The position numbers and the translations under genes are program-made. The notes below the pieces were generated by a model. It did no database searches and was not told the DNA's origin. It was given only the letters and a program-made list of their open reading frames with translations. From a virus (Duplodnaviria > Heunggongvirae > Uroviricota > Caudoviricetes), in the IMG/VR virus record IMGVR_UViG_2671180429_000002: a stretch of DNA of 7,761 nucleotides, one strand, 5' to 3'. How positions within the stretch are numbered: the stretch's first letter is position 1; each line of letters begins with the position of its first letter. This document shows, one piece after another, positions 1-7,584 of this stretch.

Positions 1-75
1 AAAACGAGTATTTTTAGTCATCCTGTTTACCTCTTTCTCAGTGAGTTTCGTCTCCAGGATTTCCGGGGCGGTTCA
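1..75 (-). mobile_element. IS3-family insertion sequence (IS629-like), left end: terminal inverted repeat plus first 7 codons of orfA; element body lies beyond the window start
   Basis: Reverse complement of 1..75 reads tgaaccgccccggaaatcctggagacgaaactcactgagaaagaggtaaacaggATGACTAAAAATACTCGTTTT, i.e. a TG-initiated terminal repeat followed by a Shine-Dalgarno (agagg) and an orfA start (MTKNTRF) as I recall for IS629/IS3-group elements. It is an imperfect inverted copy of the terminus at 7603..7628. Family identity is from memory, not a search. Confidence 0.75.
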
Positions 76-282
76 GAGCGCATAGAAGACGCTAAGCCAA
101 TTAAGTTCATGGCACAGGACGTGATCTGGCAACAGAAAGAATACAGACGCAATCTGGAGCGAGCGGCCATTGTGTACGCGAATGAGTTTGGACATAAGCA
201 ACCAGAAACTGGTGTATGTCTTCCAAACGTAGCCATTTACGCGGCAGGCTACCGGAAATCAAAACAACTGACGGCGAGGTGA
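76..282 (+). CDS. hypothetical protein; reading frame is open from the IS junction (76) to TGA at 280..282, so either the 3' remnant of a gene interrupted by the IS or a short 57-aa ORF from ATG 109
   Basis: Frame-1 translation ERIEDAKPIKFMAQDVIWQQKEYRRNLERAAIVYANEFGHKQPETGVCLPNVAIYAAGYRKSKQLTAR ends at 282. No convincing Shine-Dalgarno before ATG 109. I do not recognise the product. Confidence 0.3.
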   Translation, partial: ERIEDAKPIKFMAQDVIWQQKEYRRNLERAAIVYANEFGHKQPETGVCLPNVAIYAAGYRKSKQLTAR

Positions 283-340
283 CTTGTGTTGGTCGCCAGA
301 AAATGAAATTAGGCAGCAAACCACTTATTTGAGGTGAGAT

Positions 341-811
341 ATGACAAAATCATGGAGCGTACCTTTTCCTGAATCAGAAACTGAACATGATGGAATGCCT
401 GTTTTCTGGAGATTCCAGGCGACAGTTGAAGAAGATGGGATAAAAATATTCGCACTTCAATATATAGCTTTTCATCAGACAGAGCATTATGCATGGTTGG
501 TTCCTGCGCATTGGATTGTTAATTTTAAACCAGCACCAAATCAGTGGTTACAGGAATGGAAACAAAGGAGAAATAGATATGCAATTAAGAAAGTAGCAAA
601 AAATGCAGAAAGATCTTTTGCATTCCCAACGAAGAAACTTGCCATTGAAAGTTTATTGCGCCGGAAGAAATACCATTTAATGAGAATCAAACAAGATTTG
701 GCTGTTGTATCAACTCTTGTTGATGGTATGAAGAATATTGATACATCAACACCAGATATTGAATATAACTTTGGACACAACCAAGAAACAGAAAATTGGG
801 TATTTTATTAG
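341..811 (+). CDS. hypothetical protein, 156 aa, AT-rich orphan gene upstream of ea10 (position occupied by ral in phage lambda)
   Basis: ATG at 341 preceded by a strong Shine-Dalgarno GAGGTGA (331..337). Uninterrupted 156-codon frame. Visibly AT-rich relative to bet/exo. Basic K/R-rich segment in the C-terminal half. No motif I recognise. Confidence 0.7.
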   Translation: MTKSWSVPFPESETEHDGMPVFWRFQATVEEDGIKIFALQYIAFHQTEHYAWLVPAHWIVNFKPAPNQWLQEWKQRRNRYAIKKVAKNAERSFAFPTKKLAIESLLRRKKYHLMRIKQDLAVVSTLVDGMKNIDTSTPDIEYNFGHNQETENWVFY

Positions 812-915
812 TACGAATAAGCACTGTGTATTCATTCCAACGAGTGAATACACGGAGCAATGTCGCTCGTAACTAAACAGGAGCCGACTTGTTCTGATTA
901 TTGGAAATCTTCTTT

Positions 916-942
916 GCCCTCCAATGTGAGGGCGATTTTTTA
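916..942 (+). terminator. putative intrinsic terminator between the 156-aa ORF and ea10
   Basis: Stem GCCCTC (916..921), loop CAATGT, stem GAGGGC (928..933), followed by GATTTTTTA. Confidence 0.45.
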
Positions 943-961
943 TCTGTGAGGATATGAACAG

Positions 962-1330
962 ATGTCAAACATCAAAAAATACATCATTGATTACGACTGG
1001 AAAGCATCAATAGAAATTGAAATCGACCATGACGTAATGACAGAGGAAAAACTTCACCAGATTAATAATTTCTGGTCAGACTCTGAATACCGACTCAATA
1101 AACACGGCTCTGTATTAAATGCTGTATTAATCATGCTGGCGCAACATGCTCTGCTTATAGCAATTTCAAGCGACTTAAATGCATATGGTGTTGTGTGTGA
1201 GTTCGACTGGAATGATGGAAATGGTCAGGAAGGATGGCCTTCAATGGATGGTAGCGAAGGAATAAGAATTACCGATATCGATACATCAGGAATATTTGAT
1301 TCAGATGATATGACTATCAAGGCCGCCTGA
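962..1330 (+). CDS. ea10: lambda Ea10-like protein (ssb-like early protein), 122 aa
   Basis: 369-nt ORF of the same length and position (72 nt upstream of cIII) as lambda ea10. AT-rich. Identity recalled from lambda gene order, not searched. Confidence 0.75.
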   Translation: MSNIKKYIIDYDWKASIEIEIDHDVMTEEKLHQINNFWSDSEYRLNKHGSVLNAVLIMLAQHALLIAISSDLNAYGVVCEFDWNDGNGQEGWPSMDGSEGIRITDIDTSGIFDSDDMTIKAA

Positions 1331-1402
1331 GTGCGGCTTTACCGCATACCAATAACGCTTCACTCGAGGCGTTTTTCGTTATGTATAAATAAGGAGCACA
1401 CC

Positions 1403-1567
1403 ATGCAATATGCCATTGCAGGGTGGCCTGTTGCTGGCTGCCCTTCCGAATCTTTACTTGAACGAATCACCCGTAAATTACGTGACGGATGGAAACGCCT
1501 TATCGACATACCTAATCAGCCAGGAGTCCCAAAGAATGGATCAAACACTTATGGCTATCCAGACTAA
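1403..1567 (+). CDS. cIII: CIII protein (protects CII from FtsH), 54 aa
   Basis: ATG 1403 with Shine-Dalgarno AAGGAG (1391..1396). Translation [54 protein letters not shown] matches my recollection of lambda CIII almost exactly. The ORF-track entry 1331..1567 is the same frame with an upstream extension. Confidence 0.9.
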   Translation: MQYAIAGWPVAGCPSESLLERITRKLRDGWKRLIDIPNQPGVPKNGSNTYGYPD

Positions 1568-3698: not shown

Positions 3699-3862
3699 GA
3701 ATGAGCATTGAGATGGCACATAGCCTTGCTCAAATTGGAGTCAGGTTTGTGCCAATACCAGCAGAAACAGACGAAGAATTTCATACGTTAGCCACATCCC
3801 TTTCACAAAAGCTGGAAATGATGGTGGCGAAAGCAGAAGCAGATGAGAGAGACCAGGTATGA
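3671..3862 (+). CDS. lambda orf63-like small protein, 63 aa
   Basis: 192-nt ORF overlapping orf60a-like by 28 nt, the same arrangement as lambda orf63. Confidence 0.65.
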   Translation: MHKASPVELRMSIEMAHSLAQIGVRFVPIPAETDEEFHTLATSLSQKLEMMVAKAEADERDQV

Positions 3863-3942
3863 CAACCACTGAATGCATTTTTCTGGCAGCGGGCTTCATA
3901 TTCTGTGTGCTTATGCTTGCCGACATGGGACTTGTTCAATGA
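3859..3942 (+). CDS. possible 27-aa hydrophobic peptide (MTTTECIFLAAGFIFCVLMLADMGLVQ), translationally coupled to orf63-like
   Basis: ATG 3859 overlaps the orf63-like stop (ATGA). Translation is dominated by a single hydrophobic stretch. Short, with no independent support. Confidence 0.3.
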   Translation: MTTTECIFLAAGFIFCVLMLADMGLVQ

Positions 3943-4154
3943 CACCTCAGCAAGAAAACGCCCTTCGCAGTATTGCCCGTCAGGCTAATTCTGAAATCAA
4001 AAAAGCCAGACAGCAGTTTCCGGATAAAAACGTCGATGACATTTGCCGTAGCGTACTGAAGAAGCACCGCGAAACGGTAACGCTGATGGGATTCACACCG
4101 ACTCATTTAAGTCTGGCGATCGGCATGTTAAACGGCGTCTTTAAGGAGCGATGA
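3939..4154 (+). CDS. hypothetical protein, 71 aa (possible counterpart of the lambda orf61 region)
   Basis: ATG 3939 overlaps the stop of the 27-aa ORF (ATGA). Translation MTPQQENALRSIARQANSEIKKARQQFPDKNVDDICRSVLKKHRETVTLMGFTPTHLSLAIGMLNGVFKER. The track ORF 3873..4154 is the same frame from an upstream ATG that lacks a Shine-Dalgarno. Confidence 0.5.
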   Translation: MTPQQENALRSIARQANSEIKKARQQFPDKNVDDICRSVLKKHRETVTLMGFTPTHLSLAIGMLNGVFKER

Positions 4155-4176
4155 ACATGAAAAGCAAAATCATCAG

Positions 4177-4197
4177 GGAGCTACAGGCTCCTTTTTT
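4177..4197 (+). terminator. putative intrinsic terminator
   Basis: Stem GGAGC (4177..4181), loop TACAG, stem GCTCC (4187..4191), followed by TTTTTT (4192..4197). Confidence 0.4.
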
Positions 4198-4252
4198 ATT
4201 ATTCGCATTCACCCTCAAGCGTATTAACCAACAATTCAGGGATTAATGAAAG

Positions 4253-4474: not shown

Positions 4475-5109
4475 GCGAAATTAACTCTCAGGCACTGCGT
4501 GAAGCGGCAGAGCAGGCAATGCATGACGACTGGGGATTTGATGCGGACCTTTTCCATGAGCTGGTAACACCATCGATTGTGCTGGCGCTGCTGGATGAAC
4601 GGGAAAGAAACCAGCAATACATCAAACGCCGCGACCAGGAGAACGAGGATATTGCTCTTACGGTAGGGAAGCTGCGTGTTGAGCTGGAAGCAGCAGAGAA
4701 CAACCTTATTGATAGTGAATGCCATGTTGCTGAACTGGAAGAAGCGCTACGCGATAAGCAGGCGTTACTTGAAGCCTCAGAAAAGCGCAACGCAAAATTA
4801 CAAAGCGAGAATGCATACATCCGCAACCGGTACAAAGAACTGGACCTGTTAATCGGGAAAAACATTCTTGTCATGCAGGCTGCGATTATCGAATGGCAGG
4901 CAACTGGCGACGCTAAAAGCGGACTGGCATGGATTTATAACACACTGTTTGGCCCAGGCGAATTGCCGGACGAATCTGAGAAAGATGCTCAGGCCTACTT
5001 TAATCGCAAATATGCACCGATTGACGAAAAGCTTATGGAGCTTCACAAGTGGTTTTGGGAACAAAGTGAAGCCGAGCGCGCCGCTGGCATTCGCATCAAA
5101 GGAGAGTGA
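4471..5109 (+). CDS. Ea22-like protein, 212 aa, with coiled-coil centre
   Basis: GTG start at 4471 coupled to the upstream stop. The N-terminus (MSEINSQALREAAEQAMHDDWGFDADLFHELVTPSIVL) and C-terminus (AGIRIKGE) resemble what I recall of the Ea22 family. The central region is rich in E/L/K/R heptad-like sequence. Confidence 0.7.
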   Translation: MSEINSQALREAAEQAMHDDWGFDADLFHELVTPSIVLALLDERERNQQYIKRRDQENEDIALTVGKLRVELEAAENNLIDSECHVAELEEALRDKQALLEASEKRNAKLQSENAYIRNRYKELDLLIGKNILVMQAAIIEWQATGDAKSGLAWIYNTLFGPGELPDESEKDAQAYFNRKYAPIDEKLMELHKWFWEQSEAERAAGIRIKGE

Positions 5110-5110
5110 G

Positions 5111-5866
5111 ATGATTCACTACCACGGTGGGCCTATTACTCCTGATACGTGCGCAATGAGAGCATGGAAAGGGCGACATGCGTTTATCAGTTTTGCGCAT
5201 TCAGGCCAGATCAATCTCGCGGCTGAATACTGTCAGTCGTTCGCGCTGGACAACGGTGCATTCACCGCCTGGAAAGCAGCTGGCAAAAACAAAATCGACT
5301 GGAGCGATTACTACGAGTTTGTTGCTCGCTGGAAGAATCACCCAGGATTCGATTTTGCCATTATCCCGGATGTTATTGATGGCGGAGAGGAGGAAAATGA
5401 TGCGCTTCTGAATGAGTGGCCTCACGGAAAACTAGCTGGCGTTCCAGTGTGGCACATGAATGAAAGTGACGAGCGATTTATTCATTTGTGCAATGAGTTT
5501 CCGCGAGTGGCTATCGGTAGTTGTGGCGACTATGACGTAAAGCGCCCAACTCTTGCGGTAGCCAGAATGAAAGACCTGATTCGTCACATTGTTGATGGGC
5601 ATGGTCAGCCGGTTACGAAACTACATGGATTGCGCATGTTAAATCCGCTGATATTCACAAAATTACCCTTAGCCAGCGCAGATAGTACGAACGTCGCTCG
5701 AAACATCGGTATTGATAAAGCCTGGTCTGGGGCTTATGCACCTGCAAGTAAAGAGACACGCGCAGCATTAATGGTAGAACGGATTGAGGCACACAATAGC
5801 CCTGGTTCTCTTGCGTATTGTGAACAACGCGACCGCTTTGAAATGCAATTGCAACTAGCACTTTAA
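5111..5866 (+). CDS. TGT-superfamily (queuine/archaeosine tRNA-ribosyltransferase-like) protein, 251 aa, lacking the zinc-binding subdomain; DpdA-like candidate DNA-guanine transglycosylase
   Basis: ATG 5111 with Shine-Dalgarno GGAG (5101..5104). By eye the sequence aligns to bacterial Tgt catalytic motifs: ALDNGAF (D47) to LTDSGGFQ, FAIIPDV (D87) to IVMIFDE, RVAIGSCG to GYAVGGLAVG, and ASADSTNVARN (D191) to MFDCVMPTRNARN. No CxCxxC...H zinc motif. The track ORF 4868..5866 is the same frame with an unlikely upstream extension overlapping the Ea22-like gene. Confidence 0.7.
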   Translation: MIHYHGGPITPDTCAMRAWKGRHAFISFAHSGQINLAAEYCQSFALDNGAFTAWKAAGKNKIDWSDYYEFVARWKNHPGFDFAIIPDVIDGGEEENDALLNEWPHGKLAGVPVWHMNESDERFIHLCNEFPRVAIGSCGDYDVKRPTLAVARMKDLIRHIVDGHGQPVTKLHGLRMLNPLIFTKLPLASADSTNVARNIGIDKAWSGAYAPASKETRAALMVERIEAHNSPGSLAYCEQRDRFEMQLQLAL

Positions 5867-5876
5867 GGACTAACAA

Positions 5877-6674
5877 ATGACCACTATTACCAAAGAACGT
5901 ATTGAATTGTTCATTAAAAATCCGCTTGAAAACGGGCTTACTCGTGGCGAACAAATGGAACTGGCACGAATTGCACTGGCATCACTGGAACGCGAACTGA
6001 TTCGCCACGAGCATGCCAAATGGTCTGACTCCACATTTGGCTGCGTTGGCCCCATTGGTCCACTGAAACACCTCTCAAAAGAGGCTCTGGAAGCCGCAGC
6101 CGAACCAGACGATCTCAGCGAGTGGGCTGATATGCATTTCCTGTTGTGGGATGCACAGCGCCGTGCTGGCATCAGCGATGCTGAAATTACCGCTGCTATG
6201 GAAGATAAATTGAAGATCAACATGGAGCGCCAGTGGCCTGAACCAAAAGATGGTGAGCCTCGCTTGCACATTAAAGAACCCGGCAACTCTCCGGTAATTC
6301 CGGATGGTTTATCCACGGTATGCGCTGAGGCTTATCAGGTTGTAGGAGTTATGGCAGATGCGCTTGGTGTATTCGGTGATGCAGCAGTACAGAAAGTTCT
6401 GGATAACCTGTCACAGCAAAAACTTGTTCACAGAGATGTGCTGCCGTTCTCGCTTCCGGTGACTCCGGATGGTTGGATAAGCTGTAGTGAGCGAATGCCG
6501 AAAGAAACGGGTGACATTATTGTTGTTTCGGATGGCATTGTAATGTCCGGGATTTCTTATTCTCGTCGTGACGGGTTCTATATAACCGCATTGGAGTACG
6601 ACGACGATGAGCCAATTGGCGGTGTAACCCACTGGATGCCTCTACCAGAACCGCCTCGATTAAAGGAGCTATAA
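5877..6674 (+). CDS. MazG-like (all-alpha NTP pyrophosphohydrolase, DUF550-type dATP/dGTP pyrophosphohydrolase) N-terminal domain fused to a DUF551-type phage C-terminal domain, 265 aa
   Basis: ATG 5877 with Shine-Dalgarno AAGGA (5865..5869). N-terminal region carries paired acidic motifs KEALE...(8 aa)...EWAD as in MazG/HisE-like pyrophosphohydrolases. C-terminus ends HWMPLPEPP, typical of prophage DUF551 proteins as I recall them. Confidence 0.7.
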   Translation: MTTITKERIELFIKNPLENGLTRGEQMELARIALASLERELIRHEHAKWSDSTFGCVGPIGPLKHLSKEALEAAAEPDDLSEWADMHFLLWDAQRRAGISDAEITAAMEDKLKINMERQWPEPKDGEPRLHIKEPGNSPVIPDGLSTVCAEAYQVVGVMADALGVFGDAAVQKVLDNLSQQKLVHRDVLPFSLPVTPDGWISCSERMPKETGDIIVVSDGIVMSGISYSRRDGFYITALEYDDDEPIGGVTHWMPLPEPPRLKEL

Positions 6675-7365: not shown

Positions 7366-7584
7366 ATGTACTTGACACTTCAGGAGTGGAACGCTCGCCA
7401 GCGACGCCCAAGAAGCCTTGAAACAGTTCGTCGATGGGTGCGCGAATGCAGGATATTCCCTCCTCCGGTTAAGGATGGCAGAGAGTATCTGTTCCACGAA
7501 TCAGCGGTAAAGGTTGACTTAAATCGACCAGTAACAGGTAGCCTTTTGAAGAGGATCAGAAATGGGAAGAAGGCGAAGTCATGA
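7366..7584 (+). CDS. xis: Xis excisionase, 72 aa
   Basis: Translation MYLTLQEWNARQRRPRSLETVRRWVRECRIFPPPVKDGREYLFHESAVKVDLNRPVTGSLLKRIRNGKKAKS is near-identical to recalled lambda Xis. 23-nt overlap with the int start, as in lambda. Confidence 0.9.
   Translation: MYLTLQEWNARQRRPRSLETVRRWVRECRIFPPPVKDGREYLFHESAVKVDLNRPVTGSLLKRIRNGKKAKS

Follow-up and report, generated by a model that had tools for sequence, protein, structure and literature searches.

The locus raises the question of what is made by a 156-codon reading frame that occupies the place of the small anti-restriction gene ral in a lambdoid prophage, and whether its product serves in defence or counter-defence, as a preliminary description of the DNA had proposed. 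The window, i.e. the whole stretch of 7,761 nucleotides that was analysed, covers the early-left (pL) operon, in + orientation, of a lambdoid prophage similar to 933W, as annotated by ORF, Pfam and PHROG searches. The gene order is N (3' part only), the ORF under study, ea10, cIII, kil, gam, bet, exo, the exo-xis genes and xis (Table 1). Over positions 76-1400, the DNA is 100% identical to that of phage 933W. This homology begins only from position 76, i.e. after the end of an insertion element, and the reverse complement of window 1-75 reads TGAACCGCCCCGG...ATGACTAAAAATACTCGTTTT. Matches to this element are annotated as 'IS3 family transposase' in E. coli genomes and as 'IS629 transposase OrfA' in phage Stx2a_F422. 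In the 933W record N is annotated at locus 3824-4207, equivalent to window -101..282, and in the present prophage the gene is interrupted by the IS629-like element after ~59 codons. The product of the remaining part matches PF25694 N_peptide (E=1e-10) as well as phrog_271. Because the IS629-like element cuts N, normal pL-driven expression is probably impaired in this prophage. The IS/N junction was covered to at least 80% in just 1 of 5,426 complete E. coli genomes, with an identity of 95.9%.

Further downstream, the exo-xis region contains a 252-aa protein (5108..5866, +), encoded within a longer TTG-initiated ORF (4868..5866), that has no Pfam match and matches phrog_887, 'queuine tRNA-ribosyltransferase' (E=1.7e-103). 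Judged by this match, it could be a TGT/DpdA-like enzyme, possibly with a 7-deazaguanine DNA-modification function. Directly 3' of this TGT-like gene lies a gene for a 265-aa protein (5877..6674, +) with a dATP/dGTP pyrophosphohydrolase domain (PF04447, E=1e-41) and a C-terminal DUF551.

Table 1. Features of the window (nucleotide positions) and of the protein encoded at 341..811 (residues)
Feature	Position	Strand	Remarks
IS3-family (IS629-like) element, left end	1..75	-	inverted repeat and orfA start MTKNTRF
N antiterminator gene, 3' part (H-19B/933W/HK97 type)	76..282	+	codons ~60-127 plus stop
Shine-Dalgarno GAGGTGA	331..337	+	within left junction common to phages with other cassettes
156-aa gene (933W L0079 = HK97 gp45 = WP_000167595.1 = phi24B vb_24B_11c; PHROG 1636)	341..811	+	
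Cassette-specific DNA	344..819	+	no homology to lambda-imm21, VT2-Sakai, PhiR57_1
12-bp hairpin in conserved 3' flank	826..853	+	RNA fold
Intrinsic terminator	914..945	+	8-bp stem, 5 G-C pairs, T-run
Lambda_thermo RNA element (cIII thermoregulator), at cIII start	1390..1448	+	Rfam RF01804, 88.5 bits
xis	7366..7584	+	Pfam/PHROG annotation
Predicted long hairpin	residues 19-30 and 33-46		AlphaFold
Predicted strand	residues 50-55		AlphaFold; followed by two short helices
Predicted strands	residues 83-86; short one near 93-95		AlphaFold
Predicted 33-residue helix	residues 98-130		AlphaFold; followed by ordered C-terminal tail

The gene and its family

The basic features given for the ORF in the preliminary description were recovered. 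The ATG-initiated frame of 156 codons is present, and is preceded by a Shine-Dalgarno sequence with GAGG at 331-334, six nucleotides 5' of the ATG. It is also markedly lower in GC than the recombination genes, with a GC content of 35.7% and a GC3 of 26.8%, compared to 50-52% and 55-61%, respectively, for gam/bet/exo. An open frame of 156 codons is expected by chance at such a base composition with a probability of ~1e-5. Among homologues of 55-85% identity, 40 invariant columns are kept, and the gene is more AT-rich than its flanks in all 15 of the 15 loci compared. The ORF is an intact gene under purifying selection.

The ORF had been called an orphan, which it is not: its product is identical to L0079 of 933W, nearly identical to gp45 of HK97 and a member of PHROG 1636, with relatives that number 87 cluster representatives. 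Proteins with 100% identity are encoded by 933W, Min27, phi24B (vb_24B_11c), BP-4795, Stx2 phage 86 and many Stx1a/Stx2a phages, and WP_000167595.1 of strain EDL933 is likewise identical to the ORF product. The identity to HK97 gp45 is 99.4%, a value also found for an ORF of H-19B that lacks annotation (~863..1330 between N and gp17; L098, AF034975.3). In the phi296 record (L104, 1795..2211) the gene is called from an internal start, giving a protein of 138 aa. At the level of bacterial genomes, the ORF region is present (at least 80% covered) in 563 of 5,426 complete E. coli genomes, or about 10%. Relatives of 156-163 aa with 55-85% identity occur in Pectobacterium, Brenneria, Cronobacter, Rosenbergiella and Symbiopectobacterium. 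The 87 cluster representatives were obtained by an exhaustive profile search at E<=1e-3 and are mostly 125-160 aa in length, with 18-28% identity. Relatives detected by sequence are found in phages of Vibrio, Pseudomonas, Pantoea, Klebsiella and Salmonella and in E. coli phage Bas81, while relatives detected by predicted fold extend to phages of Erwinia, Sinorhizobium, Rhizobium, Delftia, Tenacibaculum and Cellulophaga, and thus include phages of Bacteroidota hosts. The family is both broad and phage-only.

Every one of these family members is annotated as 'hypothetical', including L0079 in the 933W record ('hypothetical protein'). PHROG 1636 is matched over the full length of the ORF product (residues 1-156 of a 156-position profile, E=2.7e-112) and by 77 of the 78 aligned relatives. 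Together with the distant PHROGs 13631, 25384 and 28215 it covers the family, and all four carry the label 'unknown function'. A literature search under L0079, WP_000167595, phrog_1636, vb_24B_11c and HK97 gp45 returned no study of the gene. In agreement with the statement that no motif is recognised, scans of the ORF product against Pfam, NCBIfam and PADLOC gave no significant match. The best PADLOC-DB v2 score was to Cas1_II (E=0.018, 12 bits), which is noise, and a Pfam scan of the 78 relatives, at both E<=0.01 and E<=10, returned scattered noise only. Apparent domain fusions were rejected: those in P0066 and P0080 are repetitive false matches, and that in P0051 amounts to an N-terminal extension rich in Cys, or else to a wrongly called start.

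A mosaic cassette of the pL operon

The position of the gene relative to ral was examined by mapping blastn breakpoints against three phages with other cargo: lambda h434 imm21 (ral), VT2-Sakai (orf20, orf19) and PhiR57_1 (sieB and ral). The ORF was correctly placed at the ral position, since lambda h434 imm21, which carries ral there, is homologous to the window up to 343 and again from 821. The left breakpoint lies at the ATG (position 343) for both lambda h434 imm21 and VT2-Sakai, and at the N stop (position 282) for PhiR57_1. The right breakpoint lies at 820/821 for all three, 9-10 nt after the ORF stop. Whether the locus is a variable cassette had been raised as a check, and the comparison bears this out, with ral, sieB plus ral, or orf20/orf19 found between the same junctions. 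VT2-Sakai (L094, 425..773) and many Stx2 phages carry orf20 (83 aa) and orf19 (51 aa), both hypothetical, at the identical ATG, from which the replacing gene of VT2-Sakai starts. A second mosaic breakpoint is found at ~941-946, just 3' of the terminator, where homology to HK97 stops (946) and that to PA28 stops (941). Past this point follows cIII in HK97, and gp17 in place of ea10 in PA28 and H-19B.

The same picture emerges from 79 IMG/VR loci with the identical gene, which were compared to the window for collinearity. Of the 76 loci that could be scored upstream, 38 lose collinearity 40-70 bp 5' of the ATG, meaning that different N alleles precede the gene. On the other side, collinearity stops 130-140 bp past the stop codon in 40 of 69 scorable loci, and depending on the phage the identical gene precedes ea10, gp17 or cIII. 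Taken together, the breakpoints at the gene borders and the IMG/VR collinearity show that the ORF is a self-contained single-gene accessory module of the pL operon, which recombines at conserved linkers. It is nevertheless not a substitute for ral in the simple sense, as Ral and a homologue of the ORF occur in tandem in phi296 (Stx2 phage 86 type). Such modules are thus stackable rather than strict alternatives. The gene is dispensable, with the close relatives VT2-Sakai and lambda lacking it. The sharp breakpoints at gene borders with alternative cargo and the distinct base composition are moron-like. A promoter and terminator of its own, as in the classical moron, are however not seen: the promoter scan gave none for the gene, and the terminator is part of the flank common to lambda and the window.

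The next gene downstream (962..1330, +) is ea10, and its product matches DUF2528 (E=2e-47). Ea10 carries the label 'ssb' in the 933W and phi24B records. The gene is also AT-rich (38.5% GC), and in related phages it is exchangeable with gp17 or is absent, with cIII following directly.

An intrinsic terminator had been described right after the ORF, at 916..942. The hairpin exists (stem 914..935, with a T-run to ~945), but it is not the cassette's own, as it lies in the lambda-shared flank. HK97 has a putative terminator annotated at the matching place, and the hairpin may correspond to the lambda tL2 group, which lies just 5' of ea10. The linker 812..950 is common to lambda and many lambdoid phages whatever cassette precedes it, and consists of a 12-bp hairpin, a second hairpin and then the terminator. 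RNA folding of 812-950 gave -48.1 kcal/mol (z=-5.8), and 0 of 200 shuffled sequences were as stable.

In the stretch from the N stop (282) to the ATG (341), the terminator scan and RNA folding detected neither a terminator nor significant RNA structure, and a consensus scan of positions 1-1500 on the + strand found no sigma-70-like promoter for the ORF. The first predicted terminator 3' of N is the one at 914..945. With no predicted terminator until past the ORF, N and the gene are probably co-transcribed on one immediate-early message, which would not depend on antitermination by N. This timing is judged from the terminator scan. In other phages, related genes frequently open an early operon or take its second place, as in Bas81, NX263, the metagenomic phage L105 and Vibrio PvVp04, and in HK97 and a Cronobacter prophage the gene is directly 3' of N.

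Across ~18 independent genomic contexts, the gene was found in early or accessory regions, with no neighbour gene conserved across these contexts. Ral adjoins the gene in phi296, and a Lar_restr_allev gene is one gene off in another locus (L106). C5 DNA methyltransferases are found one to eight genes away at loci L099, L100 and L101/102 and in phages Medea1 and Nafs113, the contexts being Marinobacterium, Pseudomaricurvus and metagenomic prophages in addition to the two phages. The association with anti-restriction genes, seen in 7 of the ~18 contexts, is only suggestive, and shared residence in accessory early regions may explain it. In Pectobacterium, the gene is situated just 5' of xis-int, and at one locus (L103) a homologue stands alone and in opposite orientation inside a structural module. 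Relatives are also present in phages without lysogeny genes in the inspected regions (Bas81, NX263, LIET2/Nafs113), which favours a role in the lytic cycle. In some phages the 3' neighbour is a DNA-binding protein, i.e. a ParB-HTH protein in NX263/Bas81 and Rha in a Vibrio phage.

Predicted structure and possible roles

The AlphaFold model made with 20 close homologues reached a pLDDT of 60 and was not used. With the 78-sequence alignment, the prediction has a pLDDT of 95.1 and a pTM of 0.83. In this model, five antiparallel strands form a sheet with a long beta-hairpin, accompanied by a basic 33-residue helix and an acidic tail ending in aromatics. A Foldseek search of the predicted model against 350,542 chains gave no match at E<=0.001, and sequence searches of the PDB, run with either the single protein or the profile, had best hits (E 0.13-0.34) that were coiled-coil noise. 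The predicted fold is without a solved counterpart and apparently new.

Residues conserved throughout the family are [Y/W]23-R24, G33, E/Q46-T47, K83/K84, K87, R91/92, T97, A101 and R108-K109, followed by the conserved C-terminal tail G...F-[D/E], in which a terminal aromatic precedes D/E. Within the clade of the ORF, the family-wide E46 is replaced by Q and C49 by H. No invariant catalytic residue set is present in the family alignment. The substitution of these conserved polar residues points to a binding protein and away from an enzyme. The C-terminal half had been described as rich in K and R, pointing to nucleic-acid binding. A basic block is indeed present, but it lies in the centre of the protein (residues 74-122, with 16 K/R versus 3 D/E, net +13), and is followed by an acidic stretch that comprises the last 34 residues (net -5). 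The overall pI is 9.1. Judged by its charge, the protein may bind nucleic acid. No membrane segment was detected, the maximum Kyte-Doolittle mean over 19 residues being 0.56.

With these features in mind, the explanation that is tentatively preferred is that of a non-enzymatic, immediate-early accessory protein, whose basic surface would bind nucleic acid or an enzyme acting on it and would counteract a barrier that the host sets against the incoming genome. The product would be a soluble binder, of which the basic sheet/helix face (R24, K83/K84, K87, R91, R107-K110, R115) may engage the nucleic acid or the nucleic-acid enzyme. During the first minutes after infection, it would serve the incoming genome, either in counter-defence of an anti-restriction-like kind or in host takeover, and its role would not be the protection of the lysogen. 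A more specific form of this explanation is possible, and is put forward with greater reserve: L0079/gp45 may be the first member of a widespread family of structurally new immediate-early counter-defence proteins that neutralise nucleic-acid-targeting host immunity, be it type I restriction or another system, with the basic sheet/helix surface gated by the acidic aromatic tail. Of the earlier suggestion of a defence or counter-defence function, counter-defence is thus kept as a reasonable candidate, but superinfection exclusion is unlikely, as no promoter of its own was found for the gene and the product has no membrane segment. No likeness to known defence or anti-defence proteins was found by sequence (Pfam, NCBIfam, PADLOC, PDB) or by fold (PDB). 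A DefenseFinder anti-defence run on phages that carry the gene lists only methyltransferases, Ral and Gam (PMC12502783). Given this DefenseFinder result, the protein, if it is a counter-defence factor, would be of a kind not catalogued so far.

A doubtful alternative is that the protein is a phage developmental regulator, which would bind DNA or RNA and adjust early transcription or translation, or the choice between lysis and lysogeny, comparable to cIII, Kil or the exo-xis genes. The strongly basic central region (net +13 over residues 63-122), the proximity of N, cIII and kil, and the DNA-binding proteins that follow the gene in NX263/Bas81 and the Vibrio phage would fit this role. So would a strand-strand-helix element in which the motif R-F-A-F-x-T-K-E-E-A (locally F-x-T-x-E-E-A), entering the helix, resembles the beta3/helix junction of AP2-type domains. 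However, an AP2-like DNA-binding domain was rejected, with an hhalign probability of 0.5% over 8 columns, and an AP2 or Arm identity was likewise dismissed, as none of the 78 members has a Pfam AP2 or Arm match. Neither an HTH nor another DNA-binding family was found with Pfam. A regulator is furthermore hard to reconcile with a gene that is dispensable, being missing from VT2-Sakai and lambda, and that varies in position, occurring after N, before xis-int and in structural modules.

More doubtful still is a host-takeover factor that inhibits, by binding to it, a non-immune host protein (protease, division or replication), for which the acidic, aromatic-ended tail would be a docking peptide. 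Kil, cIII and Gam, neighbours in the operon, act by binding or inhibiting host proteins. Early expression, the small size, the single-gene module, the conserved C-terminal tail and the presence in phages without lysogeny genes in the inspected regions are all in line with such a role, but it has no candidate target, and anti-restriction rather than takeover genes recur in the neighbourhood.

A prophage defence or superinfection-exclusion protein of the SieB/Rex type, made in the lysogen against other phages, would agree with the occurrence of sieB in the same slot of lambda-type phages, with the moron-like combination of low GC and a downstream terminator, and with the solitary, reversed homologue in a structural module. 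Against this stand the absence of a sigma-70-like promoter upstream on the + strand, the location within the repressor-controlled pL operon, the absence of a membrane segment and of a PADLOC match, the relatives in phages without lysogeny genes in the inspected regions and the fact that the terminator belongs to the shared flank and not to the cassette. For these reasons a lysogen-protecting or superinfection-exclusion role is unlikely and carries a low probability. Least probable by far is a decaying or selfish passenger ORF that is functionless now, which would account for truncated copies (phrog_18686, residues 1-61; phrog_37429, 1-53; JLK-2012, 1-138) and the disruption of the operon by an IS in this window, but not for full-length copies from Escherichia to Pectobacterium, Cronobacter and Brenneria with their invariant columns, the spread over many phage groups and covariation sufficient for a pLDDT-95 model.

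The preferred explanation, an early protein that counters a host barrier, lends itself to a direct test, given the genetic tractability of HK97 and 933W. Shiga-toxin phages of E. coli O157:H7 carry the gene, as does the model phage HK97, and its function could add a factor that affects the host range of Stx phages. An assigned function would also annotate a large block of phage 'dark matter'.

Comparison with known systems

The gene has long been annotated and belongs to the known type of lambdoid early-left accessory cassettes, while the fold is apparently new. AP2 and integrase-arm-type domains differ from the predicted structure, in which the sheet is five-stranded and carries an insertion of ~30 residues. 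The exclusion and anti-exclusion genes sieB and P22 gp17 are, like the ORF, alternative or adjacent cargo in the accessory region from N to cIII. The ORF product differs from them in having no membrane segment and no sequence similarity to them, and the gene lies on the pL strand without a promoter of its own.

T7 Ocr and ArdA, anti-restriction proteins that other phages express first, are highly acidic DNA mimics. They share with the ORF a promoter-proximal expression at the start of infection, which for the ORF is predicted. The ORF product, in contrast, has a basic pI and a strongly positive central block, and no fold match to these proteins was obtained in the PDB searches.

The closest parallel in terms of location is with lambda Ral and Rac Lar, with which the ORF shares the slot just 3' of N in the pL operon, the same mosaic junctions and the character of a small, soluble, single-gene early cassette. 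Lambda ral is located beyond tL1 and is N-dependent, whereas the ORF is not separated from N by any predicted terminator. The proteins also differ in size (66 aa for Ral as annotated in lambda h434 imm21, versus 156 aa), and neither the ORF product nor its 78 relatives match PF14354 (Lar_restr_allev), even at E<=10. Homologues of the ORF nevertheless stand beside Ral in phi296 or near a Lar-family gene in L106, and the tandem arrangement with Ral indicates that the gene is no mere replacement for it.
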